This document shows, piece by piece, positions 5,130 through 41,189 of a stretch of DNA of 64,000 nucleotides. The notes under the pieces are model-generated. The model searched no databases, had not been told where the DNA came from, and saw only the letters and a list, made by a program, of their open reading frames with translations. A program made the translations under genes and the position numbers. Origin of the DNA: Clostridia bacterium (lineage in GTDB: Bacteria; Bacillota; Clostridia; TANB77; CAG-508); assembly GCA_017515985.1 (NCBI GenBank), contig JAFWDV010000018.1, positions 39,091-103,090 of the forward strand, in the 5' to 3' direction. The stretch's first letter is position 1, and every line of letters starts with the position of its first letter.

Positions 5130-5711
5130 TTATTGTAATTTCTTTATTTGAGCTAAGGTAAGCTCTAAGGCTTTCATATTACCTTCAATAACTTCTGGTT
5201 TTTTAGCAAATTTATGTTTAAAAGATCCTTCCATATCTGCAAGAAATGCTTCATCAGTCATTATGCCACTAACTTTTACAATTGCAGCAAGCATAGGTGT
5301 GTTAGGGAAATATTTACCTAAAGCTTCAATAGAAATTGACCTTGCATCTATTGTATAGATACTTCCTTCGTAGTTTTTTAGTTTTGGTTTGATTTCAGAT
5401 AAATCTTTTGTTGTATTAATTACAATTGCACCATCTGTTTTTAGACCAGCTGTGACATCAACGCAATCCAAAAGAGTGTCATCAACAACTACTACATAGT
5501 TTGGCTCGTAGATGTTGCTGTGAATAGTGATTGGATTATTTCCAATACGATTGTAAGCTGTGATTGGCGCACCCATTCTCTCAGGACCGTATTCAGGGAA
5601 TCCTTGGATGTATTTTCCTGTGTTGAATGCAGCGTCTGCTAATAGTAAACAAGCAGTTTTTGCACCTTGGCCACCACGTCCATGCCATCTAATTTCGATT
5701 AAATCGTTCAT
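5130..5711 (-). CDS. porG: 2-oxoacid:ferredoxin oxidoreductase, gamma subunit
   Basis: 193 aa with GRGGQG motif. First gene of the operon, with RBS GAAGGAGG. Confidence 0.8.
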   Translation of the reverse strand: MNDLIEIRWHGRGGQGAKTACLLLADAAFNTGKYIQGFPEYGPERMGAPITAYNRIGNNPITIHSNIYEPNYVVVVDDTLLDCVDVTAGLKTDGAIVINTTKDLSEIKPKLKNYEGSIYTIDARSISIEALGKYFPNTPMLAAIVKVSGIMTDEAFLADMEGSFKHKFAKKPEVIEGNMKALELTLAQIKKLQ

Positions 5712-5743: not shown

Positions 5744-5772
5744 AGTATATTATTTGAGGTGCTTAAAGTCAA
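5744..5772 (-). promoter_or_regulatory. Putative sigma-A promoter of the por operon (TTGACT-17-TATACT)
   Basis: Read on the minus strand, directly upstream of the porG RBS. Confidence 0.45.
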
Positions 5773-5776
5773 GAAC

Positions 5777-5825
5777 TTTTATTAAAAACGGGGAAGAAGC
5801 ACATGGCAGTGCCATGTGCTTCTTC
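5777..5825 (-). terminator. Intrinsic terminator of islet-A paralog 1
   Basis: Perfect 15-bp stem GAAGAAGCACATGGC/GCCATGTGCTTCTTC followed on the minus strand by CCCGTTTTTAAT. Confidence 0.6.
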
Positions 5826-5841
5826 AGAGTTGCGAGGTTGA

Positions 5842-6051
5842 TTAATCAGGATAGTTAAGCTCGAGTTGCTGGAGCAGGACAAAAAAGTGTCCGCCCCGGT
5901 ACCCCGTGTAGCTTGTGATCTGAGGTGGAAATACCGTCTTGACGATGACCCCCTCCTCGGTGCACTCGTTCATAAACTGGTTTACAGTTTTGTCGAGTGT
6001 CCGCGCAAGTGCTGCAACGTCTGCGCCTTTGACTACGAATGTTTCCAACAT
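5842..6051 (-). CDS. Small GC-rich protein, paralog 1 (69 aa, ends ...LELNYPD); function unknown
   Basis: RBS AAAGGAGAGG 5 nt upstream of the ATG. Own terminator. Paralogous to the ORF at 6842-7054. G+C is much higher than in flanking genes. Confidence 0.6.
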   Translation of the reverse strand: MLETFVVKGADVAALARTLDKTVNQFMNECTEEGVIVKTVFPPQITSYTGYRGGHFFVLLQQLELNYPD

Positions 6052-6157
6052 AATGACCTCTCCTTTGGTTTATTTTCCCTGTGATGGGAATGGTGAGCGC
6101 ATGCTCAACCTTCTGTTATTATACCATATTATGTCAATTAATGCAAATGCTTTTGCA

Positions 6158-6200
6158 AAAAAGGGCCCCCGGCATGTGCCGAGGGCTCCCTGCGGTTTTT
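6158..6200. terminator. GC-rich hairpin with A-run/T-run flanks, downstream of the 149-aa ORF
   Basis: GGGCCCCCGGCA...GCCGAGGGCTCCC imperfect stem, then a T9 run. Confidence 0.4.
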
Positions 6201-6206
6201 TTTTAT

Positions 6207-6656
6207 TTAGATTTTGCTATCGGAATTTTTGGCGTAAATTACAGTCATATCAGTATCGACTGTAACACCAATATCCCAGCCGTACTGGTTGAGAAAATGG
6301 CGAAGTGGCTTGGTAAGAAATGCAGTCTCGTAGGCTGACGAGAAAGGTTTTAACGCCTTCTCTTTACCAAAAAACAGCTGTGGTGTGTGAAAATTTTGAT
6401 TGATATAAAGCAAATAATCATCAACATCAAGCTTTTCGGTGCCAGTCTGCGAAGGGCTAGGTACATAGAAACCACGTACTTCGCTTAAGTAGAATTTCTT
6501 ACACTGCTGGTTATCTCCTGTGATGTACGAGTACAGAAGTGCTCCATAACTGTCAAACAGGTCCTGTAAAGCAAATAAATGCCGTGCAGGAATGAGCTGA
6601 ACTTCTGCTCGTTCCACGTGTTTGGAAAAAAAACGCTTAGGTTCATAGAACTTCAC
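6207..6656 (-). CDS. GC-rich hypothetical protein (149 aa); no family recognised
   Basis: GTG start 7 nt after GGAGG. TTTACA-17-TATAAT promoter upstream. Lies between the two paralogous small ORFs. Confidence 0.55.
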   Translation of the reverse strand: MKFYEPKRFFSKHVERAEVQLIPARHLFALQDLFDSYGALLYSYITGDNQQCKKFYLSEVRGFYVPSPSQTGTEKLDVDDYLLYINQNFHTPQLFFGKEKALKPFSSAYETAFLTKPLRHFLNQYGWDIGVTVDTDMTVIYAKNSDSKI

Positions 6657-6787
6657 TTGAATTCCTCCAATCTTATCCGCAGGGTACCAAGGGTATGGTT
6701 AACCACTCAGTAATGAAATCAATTATAACATAATTAGATTACAATGTAAAGAAAAGTAGATCCTATAAGAACCGTCCCTCTCCATTC

Positions 6788-6828
6788 GAAAAAAGAAAGG
6801 CGCAAATGGTATTGCCATTTGCGCCTTT
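6788..6828 (-). terminator. Intrinsic terminator of islet-A paralog 2
   Basis: Perfect stem GGCGCAAATGG/CCATTTGCGCC followed on the minus strand by TTCTTTTTTCG. Confidence 0.6.
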
Positions 6829-6841
6829 CGTGCTCGAGAGA

Positions 6842-7054
6842 TTAATCGGGGTACGTAAGCTCCAGTTCCTGGAAAAGAAGGTAGCTTGTTACGTGTTCGC
6901 CGGGGATAGGTACGAGTTGGCGGGAAAATTTTACCTCAAGAATAATACCTTTTTCCTCGCTTTCGGTGCGGAGCTCGTTGATTTCACAATCAAGAGTCCG
7001 CATAAGAACGTCGGGTTTCAGCCCCCGTAAAGTGATCGTACGTGTTTCTTTCAT
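6842..7054 (-). CDS. Small GC-rich protein, paralog 2 (70 aa, ends ...LELTYPD); function unknown
   Basis: RBS AAAGGGG upstream of the ATG. TTGCTA-17-TATAAT promoter plus a TTCTCGAAAGAGAA palindrome upstream. The CDS is 47% G+C by manual count (100 of 213 nt). Confidence 0.6.
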   Translation of the reverse strand: MKETRTITLRGLKPDVLMRTLDCEINELRTESEEKGIILEVKFSRQLVPIPGEHVTSYLLFQELELTYPD

Positions 7055-7316
7055 GATGAAAACCCCTTTATATTTATTTTTCTCTTTCGAGAAATTGTGG
7101 ACACATTATATCATATTATGTAAAACATAGCAAGCTTATTTTAAAACAAAATAGCAAATCATATACGTACAGAGTATAATACAAGTTGTTTTAGATTATA
7201 CTATATTTTTAACAATAATTAAAAAAGTATTGAAATCCTAATTTTTTTTTGATATCATCTAAAAGAGAGACTAGATTAACAAAAGAAAAGTGAAAGGAGA
7301 ATTTAACAAAGGGAAA

Positions 7317-9392
7317 ATGAGAAAAAAACAAAAGAATTTTAATAAAAGAACGGCTATAGTTATTATTGCATTGTTTGTTTTTATTTTTTCATTAACTAAA
7401 GTTTGCATTTCTTTGGCAAGTAGTGAAATATTTGCTATAACTGGAGTCGAAATTATTGATCAAACATCAGATGTTGAAGTAAATGAATTTGATTTTGACA
7501 ATAGCAAGGTTAAGAGTAAGGTGACTTTTCATAATGTAGGAGATAGCATTACATTCAGTGTTAAGATAAAAAATAGTAGTAATGAAAACTATATAATAAA
7601 GTCCGTAAGTGATGATAATGAAATTGAATATATTAGTTTATTGTATAATGACTACAGTGGTGCGCAGTTTAAATCAGGTCAGAAAATAGATTTTAATATC
7701 ACAGTTAAATACAGTAAAGAAAATACTGATATTGAAAAAAGAAAGCAGGAGTTTGCATATAATATTATATTTGTTCTTACAGATGAAGAAGGAAATGAAA
7801 AAAATGAAATTATCCCAGTAAATCCACCCGAAAGTAACAATGAGATTAGTCCAACAGACACGCATGAAAGTAGTGAAGATGGCAATATTAGTCAAGATCC
7901 ATTTAGCTCTAAGTCATTTGGACCACGTACAGGAGATAATGTTGCTCTATATATAATTGTAGCTAATGCATCATTAATAATGATAATAGTTACTATAAAA
8001 AAGAAAGATACAAAAACAAAAGTAAGAAGCAATAGGGGAAAAAGTGGTAGAGGAAAGACAGGACTATTTAGTATATTGTTAGTTGGTTTAATTTTATTAC
8101 CTACAATTTCAAAAGCAACAACTGCTGGAAGCTTTATGATTTCAATTGATAATGAAATATATTTAAAAGATAAATTAGTTGTTACTTATGATATCGATGG
8201 TGTGGAAGATAGTATTATTGTTGAATATGATGAAAACGTTGAAGGTCTTCCAACTCCTGAAAAAGAAGGTTATGATTTTGATGGATGGATAAAAGAGGAT
8301 GAAACTGTATTTGATATAAATGAAATAATAAAAGAAGATGTGAAAATAATTGCAAGATTTAAAGCCAAAGAATACTTAATAAATTATGACTTAAATGGTG
8401 GATCTGTTGATGGAGTGAATCCAACTAAATATACAGTAGAAAGCGAAAATATTACGCTAATTAATCCAACTAGAGAAAATCATCAATTTATAGGTTGGAC
8501 TGGAACTGGCTTGAATGAAGCAACAAATAGTGTTACAATTCCGTCAGGATCAACAGGAATAAGGTCATACGTTGCAAACTGGGAAAAAATTCAATACAAC
8601 ATTACTTTTAATCCAGATGGAGGTACTGTTGATGAGACCACAAGAGCTGTTGATAAAGGTGATTCATTAGGTGAACTCCCTAATCCTGAAAAGGAAGGTG
8701 ATTATGTATTTGCTGGATGGTATACTAACAAAAACTATACTACAAAAGTTACAGCAAGCACTAAACCTGAAGGAGATGCAACTTACTATGCAAGATGGGT
8801 TGATAGAATGAGTACAGTATATTCACAAGAAGGAACGGTTACATTTTTTGGAAACGTTGATAAGGGATACACTGTTGATGGTGTTGAAAATACAGAGAAA
8901 AATAGATATATAAACACAGGTGTTCAATTGTTCACCGACAGAAACTTTAGTAGAGACTTTGAAATAGGCTTCGAAATAGTCAATATAATTAACAATAATG
9001 CTGATAATCAGCAAACAATAGTAAATGGTAAGTATGAGAATGAATCATATAATTATCCTGGATTTGCTTTCAGAAGATACAGATCTGAATCAGCTTTTTA
9101 TGAATTCACATCTAGAGCTAAAAATGAGAAAAAAGATGGTAATAGTGGTTTAAAATGGGAATATGGTTCTATAAGTAAAGTGGTAATATCAAGAATTGGT
9201 GGTATTATATATCTTTCTATTGATGGTCAAGAAAAAATAGAAATTCAAGATTATAGAGTAATTCCTATTAGATATAGTACCCCGATAACATTTGGGGCTT
9301 CGCATACTGCAGATGGAGATCCAATGAGATACTTTAATGGTACAATCAAAGATATGTATATTAAGTTAGAAAATAAAGCTGAGGATTATTAA
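7317..9392 (+). CDS. Large secreted/surface protein: N-terminal signal/TM, internal sortase-like sorting signal, Listeria-Bacteroides (Flg_new) repeats, C-terminal LamG/ConA-like domain
   Basis: Hydrophobic N-terminus. Internal PRTGD followed by a hydrophobic stretch and KKK. Repeats GWxxxxNYTTKV...YYARW. The ATG at 7317 is preferred over the upstream GTG at 7290. Confidence 0.6.
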   Translation: MRKKQKNFNKRTAIVIIALFVFIFSLTKVCISLASSEIFAITGVEIIDQTSDVEVNEFDFDNSKVKSKVTFHNVGDSITFSVKIKNSSNENYIIKSVSDDNEIEYISLLYNDYSGAQFKSGQKIDFNITVKYSKENTDIEKRKQEFAYNIIFVLTDEEGNEKNEIIPVNPPESNNEISPTDTHESSEDGNISQDPFSSKSFGPRTGDNVALYIIVANASLIMIIVTIKKKDTKTKVRSNRGKSGRGKTGLFSILLVGLILLPTISKATTAGSFMISIDNEIYLKDKLVVTYDIDGVEDSIIVEYDENVEGLPTPEKEGYDFDGWIKEDETVFDINEIIKEDVKIIARFKAKEYLINYDLNGGSVDGVNPTKYTVESENITLINPTRENHQFIGWTGTGLNEATNSVTIPSGSTGIRSYVANWEKIQYNITFNPDGGTVDETTRAVDKGDSLGELPNPEKEGDYVFAGWYTNKNYTTKVTASTKPEGDATYYARWVDRMSTVYSQEGTVTFFGNVDKGYTVDGVENTEKNRYINTGVQLFTDRNFSRDFEIGFEIVNIINNNADNQQTIVNGKYENESYNYPGFAFRRYRSESAFYEFTSRAKNEKKDGNSGLKWEYGSISKVVISRIGGIIYLSIDGQEKIEIQDYRVIPIRYSTPITFGASHTADGDPMRYFNGTIKDMYIKLENKAEDY

Positions 9393-20355: not shown

Positions 20356-20391
20356 AAAAAAAGCCACGCGGATAGAATCCACGTGGTTTTT
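20356..20391. terminator. Bidirectional intrinsic terminator
   Basis: A-run, then stem GCCACGCGGA...TCCACGTGG, then T5. Confidence 0.5.
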
Positions 20392-20407
20392 CGAAGGCTA
20401 GGAACCT

Positions 20408-20746
20408 TTACTTATTGAGATATTCTACATAACTTTCCCAGTCTTCTTTTTCTTCATCCGATAGCTCATCAAAAGCCTGTTCTGCTGTGATAAGTCTACC
20501 AGTATCGTTCAATACGTCCTCGCTGAAATAGTCGAGGTCGTCATATACGATACGTTTGTGGTTGGTAAGACCCTCAAGCTGCCGAGCTTCAATGACCTTT
20601 TCTTCAACTGTTTTTCCGCTGAGTTCATCAATGGAATCGACATTTCCTTTGTCAGCCAAATACAGTGTACTTCCAACGATAAGGTAGCCATTAAAAAAGC
20701 TGTCCATATCGCTGAGAAGTGTGTGCTTACCAGAAATCATACTCAT
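20408..20746 (-). CDS. GC-richer acidic hypothetical protein (112 aa; acidic C-terminus DELSDEEKEDWESYVEYLNK)
   Basis: ATG 9 nt after GAAAGGAAG. Consensus promoter upstream. G+C noticeably above the flanking genes. Confidence 0.55.
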   Translation of the reverse strand: MSMISGKHTLLSDMDSFFNGYLIVGSTLYLADKGNVDSIDELSGKTVEEKVIEARQLEGLTNHKRIVYDDLDYFSEDVLNDTGRLITAEQAFDELSDEEKEDWESYVEYLNK

Positions 20747-20814
20747 GGTAATCAACTTCCTTTCTCATAAGTCGAAAGTCGGATATTCTATCATACACTT
20801 TCGTGTAGAGCTAT

Positions 20815-20843
20815 ATTATATCATATTTTAAGTATTTGTCAAC
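20815..20843 (-). promoter_or_regulatory. Consensus sigma-A promoter TTGACA-17-TATAAT for the acidic ORF
   Basis: Seen directly on the minus strand. Confidence 0.5.
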
Positions 20844-20866: not shown

Positions 20867-22258
20867 TTAGAATTCGCAATTTCCAGGTGTTCTTGGGAAT
20901 GGTATTACGTCTCTTATATTTTGCATTCCTGTTAAATACATAATTGCTCTTTCAAATCCCAAACCGAAACCACTATGAACAACACTTCCGTATTTTCTTA
21001 AATCTAAATACCAGTTATATTCTTCAACAGGCATATTTAGCTCTTTCATTCTTGATTCAAGTTTTTCATAGTTTTCTTCTCTTTGGCTTCCACCAATTAT
21101 TTCGCCAATTCCAGGAGCTAATAAATCTGCAGCTGCAACAGTTTTTCCATCTGGATTTTGCTTCATATAAAATGCTTTTATTTCTGCTGGATAATCTGTT
21201 ACGAATACAGGCTTTTTGAATACTTGCTCGCATAAATATCTTTCATGCTCTGTTTGTAAATCTATACCCCAGCTAACTGGATACTCAAATTTATCGTTAA
21301 CTTTTTCAAGCTCTTTAACAGCATCGGTATATGAAATTCTTGCAAAATCTGAATGTATAACATTATTTAATCTATCTAATAATCCTTTATCTATAAAATT
21401 ATTGAAAAATTGCATTTCTTCAGGACAATGCTCTAATACATATGAAAAGATGTATTTTATCATTTCTTCAGCTAAATCCATATCGTCTTTTAAGTCGGCA
21501 AAACAAATTTCTGGTTCAATCATCCAAAATTCAGCAGCATGCTTAACTGTGTTAGAATTTTCAGCTCTGAATGTAGGGCCAAATGTATATACGTTTCTAA
21601 ATGCAGTTGCATATGTTTCTACATCTAGTTGTCCACTAACTGTTAAATGAGTAGGTTTATTGAAAAAGTCTTGTGAGTAATCAACTTGACCATCTTCAGT
21701 TTTTGGAATGTTGTTGAAATCAAAGGAACTAACGTTAAACATTTCACCAGCACCTTCACAGTCGCTTGATGTGATTAGAGGAGTGTGTACATATACAAAT
21801 CCTTTTTCTTGGAAGAATTTGTGAATAGCATATGCTAAAGTACTTCTAACTCTAAATACTGCGTTGAACGTATTTGTTCTTGGACGTAGATGTGAAATTG
21901 TTCTTAAATATTCAAATGTGTGTCTCTTTTTTTGAAGTGGGTATTCTTGTGGACAAAGATTTAGAATTTCTACAGCTGTTGCTTGAATTTCAAATTTTTG
22001 CTTTGCATTAGGTGTAAGAGTCACAGTACCTGTTACGGCGATTGAAGAGCTAATTGTTAATTTACAAATCTCTTCAAAATTTTTCAAACTGTTGTTAAAA
22101 ACAATTTGAATGTTGCTGAAGAATGATCCATCATTTAATTCGATAAATCCAAATGTTTTCGAATCACGAACAGTTTTTACCCATCCTTCTAAAGTAACTT
22201 CTTTGTTTTCGTAATCACTAGTGTTTTTAAATAAATCCTTAATAGTTAATTTTTCCAT
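20867..22258 (-). CDS. asnS: Asparaginyl-tRNA synthetase
   Basis: Class II aaRS motifs and an OB-fold N-terminus. Start MEKLTIKD 8 nt after AAAGGAG. Confidence 0.85.
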
Positions 22259-22284
22259 AATAAAATAATCTCCTTTCAAATTAA

Positions 22285-38226: not shown

Positions 38227-39978
38227 ATGGAAAATAATTCAGTAAGTCTAACAATAGATAACAAAATAATAAGCGTTCCAGAAGGCATAACTATTTTGGA
38301 AGCGGCAAGACTTAATGGTATTGATATCCCAACATTGTGTTTCCTAAAGGAAATTAATGAAATTGGTGATTGTAGAATGTGTATTGTAGAAGTTGAAGGT
38401 CGTAGAGGATTTACAACTTCATGTATTACTAAAGTTGAAGAAGGAATGGTTGTTCATACAAATACTCCTGCTATTATTGAAGCTAGAAGAACAATTTTAG
38501 ATTTGATTATTTCAAATCACCATATGGATTGCTTAACTTGTGTTAGAGATGGTAATTGCGAATTACAAGATTTAGCAAAGAAATTTAACATGACAGAAGT
38601 TATGTTTGAGGGAGAAAAAATTGACTATGAAATAGACGATAAGTCTCCTTCAATAGTTAAAGATTTAAATAAATGTGTACTTTGTAGAAGATGTGTGGGT
38701 GCATGTAAGAAAATGCAAGAAATTGGAGCAATTGATTCAATGAACAGAGGATTTGAATCATGTGTTTCAACAGCAAATGGATTAAGCTTAAATGATGTAG
38801 ATTGTACATTTTGTGGTCAATGTATTGAAGCTTGCCCAGTTGGAGCTCTTCGCGAAAAAGATAGCACAGAAGAAGTATGGGCTAAAATTAGAGATGAAGA
38901 AACATATACTATTGTTCAAACAGCTCCAGCAGTTAGAGCTGCTTTAGGAGAAGAATTTGGTCTTCCAATTGGTACTGAAGTAGAAGGTAAAATGCCAACA
39001 GCATTAAGAGCAATTGGATTTGATAAAGTATTTGATACAGATACAGGTGCTGACTTTACAATTATGGAAGAAGCAAATGAATTAATTGAGCGTATACAAA
39101 ATGGTGGAGTTATGCCAATGATGACATCTTGTTGCCCTGCTTGGATAAGATTTGCAGAGAAAAACTTCCCAGATCAATTAGATCATATATCAAGTTGTAA
39201 ATCACCACATGAAATGTTTGGTGCAATTATAAAATCATATTATGCTCAAAAGTTTAATATTGATCCAGCTAAAATATATGTTGTTTCAGTAATGCCATGT
39301 ACAGCTAAAAAGTATGAAGCTGTTAGACCAGAAATGGAAAATGATGGTTTGAGAAATGTTGACGCTGTTATTACAACAAGAGAACTTGCAAGAATGATTA
39401 AACAAGCTAATATTGATTTTGCTGAAATAGAAGACTCTAAATTTGATGATCCAATGGGTGAATCAACTGGTGCTGCTGTTATATTTGGAGCAACAGGTGG
39501 AGTTATGGAAGCAGCTTTAAGAACTGCAGCTGATGTTCTTGAAGGAAAAGATTTAGGTGAAGTTAATTATGAAGCAGTTCGTGGTCAAGAAGGAATTAAA
39601 AGAGCTACAGTTAATATCGCAGGAAAAGATATTAGAGTAGTTGTTGCTTCTGGATTAAAGAATGCAAGAAAGATTATGAATGAAATTAAAGAAGGAAAAG
39701 CTGATTATGAATTCGTTGAAATAATGGCTTGTCCAGGTGGATGTATTAATGGTGGAGGACAACCAATTAAATCATCTAAAATAAGGAGTAAAGTTGATGT
39801 GAGAAAATTAAGAGCAGATAGTCTATACTCAATAGATGAAAAATCTACAATTAGAAAATCACATCAAAACCAAGTTGTAAAAGGAATTTATGATGAATTT
39901 TTTGGAAAACCAGGAGAAGAAAAAGCTCACAAATATTTACATACACACTACAAGAGGCAAGAGAAATATGAAATGTAA
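38227..39978 (+). CDS. hydA: [FeFe]-hydrogenase catalytic subunit (HydA-like, multidomain)
   Basis: H-cluster motifs TSCCPAW, MPCTAKK and EIMACPGGCINGGGQP. N-terminal 2Fe-2S and 4Fe-4S domains. Confidence 0.85.
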   Translation: MENNSVSLTIDNKIISVPEGITILEAARLNGIDIPTLCFLKEINEIGDCRMCIVEVEGRRGFTTSCITKVEEGMVVHTNTPAIIEARRTILDLIISNHHMDCLTCVRDGNCELQDLAKKFNMTEVMFEGEKIDYEIDDKSPSIVKDLNKCVLCRRCVGACKKMQEIGAIDSMNRGFESCVSTANGLSLNDVDCTFCGQCIEACPVGALREKDSTEEVWAKIRDEETYTIVQTAPAVRAALGEEFGLPIGTEVEGKMPTALRAIGFDKVFDTDTGADFTIMEEANELIERIQNGGVMPMMTSCCPAWIRFAEKNFPDQLDHISSCKSPHEMFGAIIKSYYAQKFNIDPAKIYVVSVMPCTAKKYEAVRPEMENDGLRNVDAVITTRELARMIKQANIDFAEIEDSKFDDPMGESTGAAVIFGATGGVMEAALRTAADVLEGKDLGEVNYEAVRGQEGIKRATVNIAGKDIRVVVASGLKNARKIMNEIKEGKADYEFVEIMACPGGCINGGGQPIKSSKIRSKVDVRKLRADSLYSIDEKSTIRKSHQNQVVKGIYDEFFGKPGEEKAHKYLHTHYKRQEKYEM

Positions 39979-40084
39979 ATTGAAAATTTGTTAAAAATAT
40001 GGTATAATTAATTAATCGCAAATATATGCGATGACCCTGGATTTTCTGGGGTGTAAAAAATGTGCCAAGGGAGGTGTTTTCACA

Positions 40085-40276
40085 ATGGCACGAAACAACA
40101 AGGCGCGGTCTAAAGCGCCGAGAAAAGGGATATTTAGCTCTTTCTTTGAAAAAATAAGACGAGCCAAATACCAGAAGAAGGCTCAGAAAGCTGCTCAAAA
40201 GGCTGCTCGCAAGGCCAGAAAGGCCAAAATTAGGCAGATAAAGCAGAAAGCAAATCTGAGACCTAAACGGTTCTAA
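40085..40276 (+). CDS. GC-rich, extremely basic small protein (63 aa, Lys/Arg/Ala-rich; N-terminus MARNNKARSKAPRKG)
   Basis: RBS AAGGGAGG 8 nt before the ATG. Promoter TTGAAA-17-TATAAT with the palindrome ATCGCAAATATATGCGAT after the -10. Own terminator. Confidence 0.55.
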   Translation: MARNNKARSKAPRKGIFSSFFEKIRRAKYQKKAQKAAQKAARKARKAKIRQIKQKANLRPKRF

Positions 40277-40282
40277 GCAAAG

Positions 40283-40314
40283 TTCGGGGGGCATTATACC
40301 TCCCGAATTTTTTT
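40283..40314 (+). terminator. Intrinsic terminator
   Basis: Stem TTCGGGGGG...CCTCCCGAA followed by T7. Confidence 0.55.
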
Positions 40315-40432
40315 GTAAAGGTTTACAATAATTTAGAAATATGTTATAATTAACTAATCTTGCAGATGCAGGATTTCCTGGATGGAGGGTCCACCAGGTA
40401 AAGCTTTAGTCAGTGCGAAAGGAGATGTTACT

Positions 40433-41059
40433 ATGGCACTGAGAAACAGAAAGGGGCAGGCTAATGCTCCGGAGGTCATCGTGTGTGACCAGAACGGCAA
40501 TCCGATGAATGGAAGAGAGCGGAAAAGAGTAAGCGAAATCGCCGAAAGTCTGCTTTTTGCATTGTTCAGAGCGGGGTCGTTCGCAAAGAGGCGGATTCAT
40601 CAGTGGTGGGAAGACTTGGCAAATCCCGCAAAGCTGAGGAAGACCGAAGAACAGTTGCAGAGAGAAGCGCTGATGCAGGCTAGATCGGAGATTTTCCTCT
40701 CGATTATTGGCGGTATTGCGATTGTGCTTTTCATCAAGAAGCTTCCTATTCTGATTGCAATTATGGGCATTTTAGAGCTGCTTTGTGTGCTTGTACACGC
40801 AGCAGTTGTCCGTGATGCAATTGCTAGAGGCGAAAACCTCAACAATGCAGAAAAGGAAATCTCTAAGGCAACTGCAAACCTCATGAGGGCATTCGTAATC
40901 AGCGTAGTGCTGGCAACGGTTTTTGCTGTCTGGATTCACAAGAATCCTGACATGGTAGCAGACATTCCGATGCTTAGCAAGTTTGCTGATTGGCAGATTG
41001 GCATTGTGAATGAGCTGTTTGAGAAAATCAGCAGTATTATCACGAAGGCCAAAAGCTAA
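40433..41059 (+). CDS. GC-rich polytopic membrane protein (208 aa) with an N-terminus paralogous to the preceding small protein (MALRNRKGQANAPEV)
   Basis: RBS AAAGGAGA 8 nt before the ATG. Promoter TTTACA-17-TATAAT plus the palindrome ATCTTGCAGATGCAGGAT. 3-4 hydrophobic helices. Terminator after the stop. Confidence 0.55.
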   Translation: MALRNRKGQANAPEVIVCDQNGNPMNGRERKRVSEIAESLLFALFRAGSFAKRRIHQWWEDLANPAKLRKTEEQLQREALMQARSEIFLSIIGGIAIVLFIKKLPILIAIMGILELLCVLVHAAVVRDAIARGENLNNAEKEISKATANLMRAFVISVVLATVFAVWIHKNPDMVADIPMLSKFADWQIGIVNELFEKISSIITKAKS

Positions 41060-41189
41060 CCGAATGAACTTGATGGGAAAAAGTCGGGGGACGCAAGTCC
41101 CTCGCTTTTTTTGTCGAATATACATGATAAAATCATTGACCAAATACCTTAATTTTGATACTATAACAAAAGCAAAAGGAGGTGAGAGC

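Follow-up and report, generated by a model that had tools for sequence, protein, structure and literature searches.

Three small genes lie side by side in a G+C-rich patch of an AT-rich clostridial genome, and their arrangement raises the question of whether they make up one system or are separate genes that share a site. We present here an analysis of this islet, which lies in a 64,000-nucleotide (nt) stretch of a Clostridia bacterium metagenome-assembled genome (MAG) (assembly GCA_017515985.1, contig JAFWDV010000018.1, positions 39,091 to 103,090 of the forward strand), hereafter called the window. The genes, named P1, MID, and P2, had been proposed in a first-pass annotation, made from the sequence alone, to form one undescribed system. 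We lean instead toward seeing in the islet three stacked accessory cassettes, each independent and standing alone, that resemble the morons of phages. Each cassette would consist of a sigma-A-type promoter with a TRTG/−10 extension, a 5′ stem-loop, a strong ribosome-binding site (RBS), a G+C-rich coding sequence (CDS), and a long-stem terminator, and the cassettes would occupy a strain-variable gap between minD and por in a spore-forming rumen Clostridia species. MID would be the older resident of the site, and P1 and P2 would be two old copies of a 70-aa beta-alpha-beta-beta protein, gained and lost as whole cassettes.

The islet genes, their signals, and their relatives

Three minus-strand open reading frames (ORFs) of 70, 149, and 69 aa are enclosed by porC (5711..5130, minus strand), the first gene of the four-subunit por operon (porCDAB), and a gene for a 700-aa surface protein with Flg_new and Laminin_G_3 family matches (7290..9392, plus strand), at the coordinates of the first-pass annotation. 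P1 (6842..7054; the "paralog-2" of that annotation) encodes an acidic protein of 70 aa with an isoelectric point (pI) of 4.9 and the C terminus LELTYPD. MID (6207..6656) has a GTG start and encodes a cytosolic protein of 149 aa, and P2 (5842..6051) encodes a 69-aa paralog of P1. All three are entered at NCBI as "hypothetical protein" in a "Clostridia bacterium" MAG (MBR2744829.1, MBR2744828.1, and MBR2744827.1, respectively), and none has membrane or secretion signals. The por promoter (5772..5744, minus strand) lies directly beyond the P2 terminator; on a wider scale, the islet is flanked by porCDAB on one side and by the surface-protein gene, minDE, and rodA on the other. The G+C contents of the CDSs are 0.469 for P1 (100 of 213 nt, exactly the 47% counted earlier), 0.411 for MID, and 0.505 for P2, against a window mean of 0.32. 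At third codon positions (GC3), the values are 0.49, 0.41, and 0.60, respectively, against 0.11 to 0.25 in the flanking and other host genes of the window.

The islet is neither an assembly product nor a run of chance ORFs. A 1.7-kb stretch is 100% identical across nine contigs of separate ENA and Logan assemblies, so the region is not the artefact that the first-pass annotation had allowed for, and independent assemblies contribute at least 16 contigs with the genes. Variant contigs (L010, L026, and L027) share approximately 90 to 93% DNA identity with the window, the changes being mostly synonymous and at third positions. P1 and its L010 variant differ synonymously at 13 codons and nonsynonymously at 7, and 14 of the 22 changes fall at third positions; the corresponding ratios for MID against two strain variants are 22:10 and 31:12. 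An Rfam scan of the islet gave no match. Because synonymous changes dominate between strain variants, P1, MID, and P2 are genuine protein-coding genes. P1 and P2 are paralogs, as the first-pass annotation had stated (BLASTP, 35% identity across 66 aa; E value, 4e-13), and their invariant positions, including the C-terminal LELxYPD, agree with those that it listed.

Promoter-like and terminator-like sites were located with a consensus scan, using shuffled sequence as the background. The scan returned 13 promoter-like sites (4.4 ± 2.1 in shuffles) and 5 terminator-like sites (1.9 ± 1.6 in shuffles), and one promoter-like site with TGnTATAAT and a spacer of 17 to 18 nt precedes each of the three genes. 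The signals described here are all on the minus strand. The predicted P1 promoter (7105..7133) reads TTGCTA, a 17-nt spacer, and TG-n-TATAAT (an extended −10 element); its core, ACATAATATGnTATAAT, is common to the P2 promoter and to variants L010, L026, and L027. The P1 5′ stem-loop (7081..7092; TCTC-GAAA-GAGA with a GNRA loop) is retained in L010 as CCTC-GAAA-GGGG and is also complementary to TCTCTCGAG (6841..6833), just past the stop codon, and the predicted intrinsic terminator of P1 (6795..6829) has a 15-bp stem, a 5-nt loop, and a T-run. For MID, the predicted promoter (6722..6750) reads TTTACA, a 17-nt spacer, and TG-t-TATAAT, within a block (TATGTTATAATT) that is unchanged in the homolog on contig L011. 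A 5′ hairpin near the predicted transcript start (6685..6712; it includes GGTTAACC), the Shine-Dalgarno site TGGAGG (6669..6664), and a predicted terminator of 9 pairs (6165..6186; conserved in L011 and in a further homolog, L012) complete the MID cassette. The P2 cassette spans 374 bp from promoter to terminator stem (5789..6162) and carries a predicted promoter (6118..6147; TTTGCA/TTGCAT, a 17- to 18-nt spacer, and TG-g-TATAAT), a 5′ stem-loop (6094..6107; TGAGC-ATGC-GCTCA), and a predicted terminator with a 15-bp stem and a 3-nt loop (5793..5825). The earlier claim that each gene has its own promoter, palindrome after the −10 element, RBS, and perfect-stem terminator thus stands except in one detail, the MID stem containing a G-U pair. 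By these signals, with a promoter-like site and a terminator for each gene, P1, MID, and P2 are separate transcription units, as the first-pass annotation proposed, and are predicted not to be cotranscribed.

Relatives of the window display the locus in other states. L011, an 8.7-kb contig of a related organism (MinD 91%, RodA 85%, and Dus 82% identical), carries the MID homolog P0005 in the syntenic position, divergent from minD and followed by a gene for a Sel1-repeat protein; P0005 is only 44% identical to MID, and tblastn found no P-family gene on the contig. Since a MID this divergent stands at the same position in a relative with so similar a MinD, MID is probably the older resident of the site. 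The sister-lineage islets on L026 (from JGI) and L027 (from Logan) run from minD, divergently, through P1 and MID to the por promoter and have no P2: the MID terminator stem continues directly into a T-run and the por promoter, and the 374 bp at 6162..5789 are gone. Both edges of this indel lie inside the CCC/TTTTT stretch that follows a terminator stem, and a deletion is as plausible as an insertion. The locus thus exists as MID alone (L011), as P1 and MID (L026 and L027), and as P1, MID, and P2 (the window), and these three states indicate that the genes are not an obligate module. The check for co-occurrence of the small protein with the 149-aa protein across genomes, which the first-pass annotation had called for, therefore came out negative; the single system that it proposed is not supported, and its picture of a duplicated gene bracketing a middle gene dissolves on comparison with relatives. 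The minD-por gap varies through at least two separate indels, because the surface-protein gene is also absent from L026, where the minD start lies upstream of P1 (window 7290 to 9392 versus L026 1 to 334).

Two side observations concern these relatives. The P1 and MID alleles look mosaic among L010, L026, L027, and the window (6207 to 7054): about 200 nt in the middle of the L026 MID are identical to the window while both MID ends resemble L027, and in L027 the middle of P1 resembles the window and its start resembles L010. The intergenic regulatory DNA is 97 to 99% identical among the variants, while the CDSs differ by 7 to 10%. On L011, the Sel1-repeat protein (6535 to 7470; 311 aa) has a weak match to Tai4, a type VI secretion system amidase immunity family (Pfam E value, 1.5e-7), and its gene is somewhat GC-richer than its host (GC3, 0.34 versus approximately 0.2).

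Protein families and folds

Hidden Markov model (HMM) scans of P1, MID, P2, and the MID homologs against Pfam, NCBIfam, PHROGs, and PADLOC gave nothing usable. With PDB sequence searches likewise empty, the first-pass annotation was right to place the proteins in no known family, and no confident match to a housekeeping family emerged. Matches treated as noise were phrog_34884, a family without an assigned function (E value, 0.0015, over 33 aa of P2), and REase_II for the MID relative P0006 (E value, 0.025); PDB sequence-profile matches to OKP1, PPR, and AdeR were chance matches only.

Searches for homologs returned almost nothing outside the strain variants. A word-seeded search of 5.8 billion proteins with P1, MID, and a P-family profile returned nothing beyond self-matches and a single 90% variant of P1. 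When MID was searched exhaustively with HMMER against 1.84 billion cluster representatives, the only relatives recovered were P0005 and P0006, both distant at 44% identity. Degenerate-pattern scans of GTDB species representatives, IMG/VR, and JGI metagenomes found no relatives, and no match came from tblastn searches of 50,697 phage records and 72,556 plasmid records. JGI metagenomes were also scanned with a DNA pattern for the conserved terminator of MID and adjoining sequence (the clamp described below); the 13 matches, on contigs of 57 to 73% GC, were all due to chance.

AlphaFold2 predicts a beta-alpha-beta-beta fold for P1 with a predicted local distance difference test (pLDDT) score of 94, from an alignment of only 3 sequences. 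In Foldseek searches, models of SpoVS and of phage "Cse60" were among the best matches (template modeling [TM] scores, 0.57 to 0.65; E values, 0.02 to 0.2), and the model superposes on many proteins that hold a long helix on a three-stranded sheet. As modeled, the likeness is that of a generic shared motif and gives no family assignment. The possibility that the MID C terminus is a P-like domain was rejected by a profile-profile test, in which the P and MID profiles proved unrelated. We infer that the three are small cytosolic accessory proteins that act independently of each other; our guess, weakly held and drawn from the Cse60/SpoVS-type fold resemblance, is that they may be small oligomerizing regulatory or structural proteins. 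It is conceivable that they serve as small proteins of sporulation or stationary phase, the fold likeness being a weak lead only. For annotation, the genes are three lineage-restricted orphans without a functional lead.

Composition, mRNA structure, and origin of the cassettes

The G+C richness of MID has persisted through considerable divergence. When the window is compared with L011, 40 to 61% of the fourfold degenerate sites in minD, rodA, and dus differ, a divergence that we estimate to be near saturation for such AT-biased sites, and the G+C content of fourfold sites (GC4) in MID is 0.42 to 0.58 in all three lineages, against 0.09 to 0.19 in host genes. That MID is GC-rich in three lineages in which synonymous sites of housekeeping genes have come close to saturation means that its composition does not simply betray a fresh import. 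The earlier description of the block as foreign is therefore borne out as to atypical composition and not as to simple recent arrival. Either selection holds the GC-rich sites or an unseen, GC-richer pool repeatedly supplies divergent alleles. The coding regions also fold better than dinucleotide shuffles, with z-scores near −2 for each of P1, MID, and P2; the 8 GC-rich cassette CDSs of the window (those outside the islet are described below) have a mean of −2.3, compared with −0.9 for 20 chunks of host CDSs (Mann-Whitney p, 2.6e-4).

In the MID transcript, the two untranslated regions (UTRs) are predicted to pair with each other. The 5′ half of this clamp, CCCTGCGG (6677..6684, minus strand), lies just after the 5′ hairpin and 7 nt upstream of TGGAGG, and it is the reverse complement of the 3′ half, CCGCAGGG (6188..6195, minus strand), directly upstream of the terminator stem. 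The predicted helix of 8 to 11 bp spans approximately 490 nt, has a pairing probability of approximately 1.0 in full-length folds of all three MID homologs, and has a duplex energy of −18 to −23 kcal/mol, which is matched by 0 to 1 of 1,000 shuffles (for the window MID, −18 kcal/mol and 0 of 1,000). Cross-pairing works only inside the MID family. Promoter, 5′-UTR, and 3′-UTR blocks are conserved among the window, L011, and L012 (TATGTTATAATT, CATTACT, GTTAAC, TTGGTA, CCTGCGGAT, TGGAGG, and the terminator) although the L011 and L012 proteins are only about 44% identical to MID, and one clamp-flanking pair covaries as C-G in the window, U-G in L011, and U-A in L012. Taken together, the expression architecture, the lasting GC-richness, the excess folding, and the clamp of MID lead us to infer that, if their promoters fire, the cassettes would yield compact, strongly folded, long-lived monocistronic mRNAs. 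In the case of MID, the helix joining the 5′ UTR to the 3′ UTR would close the mRNA on itself, as in Bacillus subtilis hbs, and clamp and structure together would stabilize it.

Of the other origins considered, a recent foreign import fares best, and we still hold it to be unlikely. It would make the genes morons left by a decayed prophage or mobile element, with the unameliorated composition of a donor of higher G+C content. Promoter, gene, terminator, and atypical composition together are indeed the moron build (PMC2920897), the GC3 of 0.41 to 0.60 stands out from approximately 0.2 in host genes, close relatives vary in whether they carry P2 and the surface-protein gene, and the alleles of L010, L026, L027, and the window have a mosaic look. 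Yet no donor was found: outside the clade there are no homologs among the 5.8 billion proteins searched for P or the 1.84 billion cluster representatives searched for MID, and none in GTDB species representatives, IMG/VR, JGI metagenomes, or the phage and plasmid records. Nor is there an integrase or phage gene nearby, the flanks being minD and por; the promoters fit the host's own −16/−10 type, and MID remains GC-rich while syntenic in a relative with near-saturated synonymous sites.

The islet is not the only place in the window with such a build. A GC scan found at least three more orphan cassettes or groups of them (B, C, and D), each beginning directly after the stop codon of a housekeeping gene; they have no Pfam or PADLOC match, and all are "hypothetical protein" in the MAG. 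Islet B (approximately 39960 to 41110, plus strand) lies between a [FeFe]-hydrogenase gene and a priA-like gene and comprises two stand-alone cassettes with a GC3 of 0.47 to 0.52. Its first ORF (40085..40276) encodes 63 aa with a pI of 12 and has the signals TTGAAA-17-TGgTATAAT, a palindrome (ATCGCA..TGCGAT), and its own terminator; the second (40433..41059) is a membrane ORF of 208 aa with TTTACA-17-TGtTATAAT and, again, its own terminator. Cassette C (approximately 34840 to 35680, plus strand; GC3, 0.42 to 0.47) directly follows an M50 peptidase gene and has one promoter and one terminator for two overlapping orphan ORFs (34912..35304, 130 aa, and 35294..35617, 107 aa), which are weakly alike (23% identity; E value, 0.003). 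Cassette D (approximately 20360 to 20840, minus strand) follows the asnS stop codon with TTGACA-17-TGaTATAAT, the stem-loop TACAC-GAAA-GTGTA, an acidic 112-aa orphan ORF (20746..20408; GC3, 0.42), and a terminator; the folding z-score of its CDS, −3.9, is the lowest of all the cassettes. D stands at the same site in relatives L028 and L029. Its transfer as a cassette had seemed indicated by asnS being 84% and D 98% identical in L028, and was rejected because asnS owes its low identity to a mosaic segment upstream, its 3′ part also being approximately 98% identical. That asnS mosaic between strains (L028 8483 to 9874 versus window 20867 to 22279; approximately 84% over 1,083 nt) is an observation in itself and suggests that a housekeeping gene has recombined internally with a diverged lineage. 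A separate GC-rich segment (60595 to 60990, plus strand; G+C content up to 0.475) with several strong hairpins and no Rfam match lies downstream of tRNA-Leu(CAA) (60507 to 60593) and contains, at approximately 60712 to 60723, a 12-nt copy (ccaccatcggca) of the 3′ end of that tRNA. Copies of a tRNA 3′ end can mark an old integration site.

With at least four such units within 64 kb, the cassettes could be seen as a new kind of mobile or selected element: autonomous, GC-rich through selection on RNA structure, and inserted or excised as units at terminator T-runs or directly past host-gene stop codons. This we regard as a long shot. The edges of the P2 indel do fall exactly in CCC/TTTTT after two terminator stems, with TTTTT on both sides; cassettes B, C, and D directly follow the stop codon of the host gene upstream; the GC-richness persists; and the CDSs show excess structure. 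Against this, only a single indel was seen, which a deletion between short repeats would account for just as well; the cassettes lack a recombinase, a common end motif, and sequence similarity to one another; and D is at the same site in all relatives seen. The full form of the proposal is just as doubtful, namely, that this AT-rich genome carries a class of autonomous, GC-rich, hyper-structured "closed-loop mRNA" cassettes that encode new families, including the ELxYPD protein, with synonymous sites held by selection for RNA structure or stability and with gain and loss as units at T-runs or stop codons without a known mobilizing enzyme.

A toxin/immunity, toxin-antitoxin, or antiphage module in which the small paralogs act with the 149-aa protein, close to the toxin/immunity or sensor/effector module that the first-pass annotation had been reminded of, is very unlikely. 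The genes are adjacent in a strain-variable spot, MID diverges fast (44% identical where MinD is 91%), and the gene downstream of the L011 MID homolog encodes the Sel1-repeat protein with the weak match to an immunity family. On the other hand, PADLOC, Pfam, NCBIfam, and PHROGs gave no match to toxin, antitoxin, or defense families, and the proteins lack membrane and secretion signals. Such pairs are normally cotranscribed, whereas each gene here has its own predicted promoter and terminator, and the occurrence of MID without any P gene in L011 and without P2 in L026 and L027 argues against an obligate partnership. That the genes are not genes at all and are an assembly artefact or structured noncoding RNAs with chance ORFs is scarcely credible: GC-rich islands of AT-rich genomes are often RNA genes, and these CDS regions fold better than shuffles, but the region is identical in at least nine independent contigs, substitutions are mainly third-position and synonymous, P1 and P2 are paralogous at the protein level, the P1 fold prediction is confident, and Rfam has no match.

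Several points weigh against reading the islet as three independent cassettes with stable mRNAs. The promoters, transcript ends, and RNA structures are all predictions. A significant clamp was found only in MID, comparison of duplexes with shuffles giving none in P2 or cassettes B, C, and D and a marginal one in P1 (p, 0.06; 0.02 in L010), and the apparent covariation concerns one pair in three sequences. Composition, or another process, could have produced the excess RNA structure as a by-product, without selection for stability. An interaction of P1 or P2 with MID in this species is compatible with the comparative data. The orphan status of the P family comes from the word-seeded search and the pattern scans, not from an exhaustive profile search, and such searches may miss remote relatives; the single-sequence AlphaFold2 model of MID is unusable (pLDDT, 41), so its alpha/beta prediction is of low confidence. 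The locus is of moderate interest, for its RNA-level and compositional oddities and not as a new protein machine.

Comparison with known systems

At the level of fold, the modeled P1 has a possible likeness to Cse60 and SpoVS: the proteins are of approximately 60 to 90 aa, cytosolic, and built of a helix packed on a small antiparallel sheet, and the host of the islet is a spore-former (GerA, SpoIIR, and a spore permease are encoded on L028). They differ in that P1 and P2 have no Pfam or NCBIfam match to the Cse60 (PF10957) or SpoVS family HMMs even at an E value of ≤10, the islet promoters look to be of the sigma-A type and not of a sporulation-sigma type, and the fold motif is generic. For the SIMPL/BP26 domain, neither a family HMM match nor a two-lobed protein of approximately 200 aa was found. 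Further fold-level matches of P1 are subdomains of proteins of 190 to 290 aa with 7 to 12% identity, differing in size and context; such matches reflect a shared motif and are not evidence of homology.

Like type II toxin-antitoxin and polymorphic toxin-immunity loci, the islet has small, adjacent, fast-evolving genes in a variable region. It differs from them in that its genes are, by their signals, not cotranscribed and have neither conserved co-occurrence nor a family match.

The closer comparison is with phage morons, which in the concept of Hendrix and Juhala are single genes with their own promoter and factor-independent terminator and an atypical composition (PMC2920897). The islet units likewise have their own predicted promoters and terminators, differ from their flanks in GC3 (0.41 to 0.60 versus 0.11 to 0.25), and stack at a hotspot with variable occupancy, P2 being absent from L026 and L027 and both P1 and P2 from L011. 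In contrast to morons, the islet and the other cassettes lie between housekeeping operons and genes (minD, por, asnS, hydrogenase, and priA-like) and not among phage genes; the islet has no phage proteins nearby, no PHROG matches, and no tblastn matches in 50,697 phage records; its units are GC-richer and not AT-richer than the host; and at least MID is syntenic across related organisms. The comparison thus fits on three features and fails on the defining phage context. If the islet is as we read it, it would offer a clear-cut natural case of self-contained, moron-style expression units that reside outside any prophage, in a bacterial chromosome, and the resistance of its synonymous G+C content to strong host AT mutation pressure would point to selection on mRNA structure or stability across whole coding regions.

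For the predicted MID clamp, the known counterpart is B. subtilis hbs, in which a proven 14-nt interaction that joins the 5′ UTR with the 3′ UTR (−19 kcal/mol), with its two halves just downstream of a 5′ hairpin and just ahead of the terminator, limits RNase Y cleavage in vivo (Braun, Durand and Condon 2017, PMC5737220). MID is likewise predicted to give a small monocistronic mRNA with a structured 5′ UTR, a strong Shine-Dalgarno site, and a terminator, and its clamp lies in the same positions with a similar energy (−18 to −23 versus −19 kcal/mol). The MID helix is shorter (8 to 11 bp versus 14 nt), the gene products are unrelated, and the MID clamp is a prediction from sequence. If it forms as predicted, the MID clamp would provide the hbs-type mechanism with a second, independent example.

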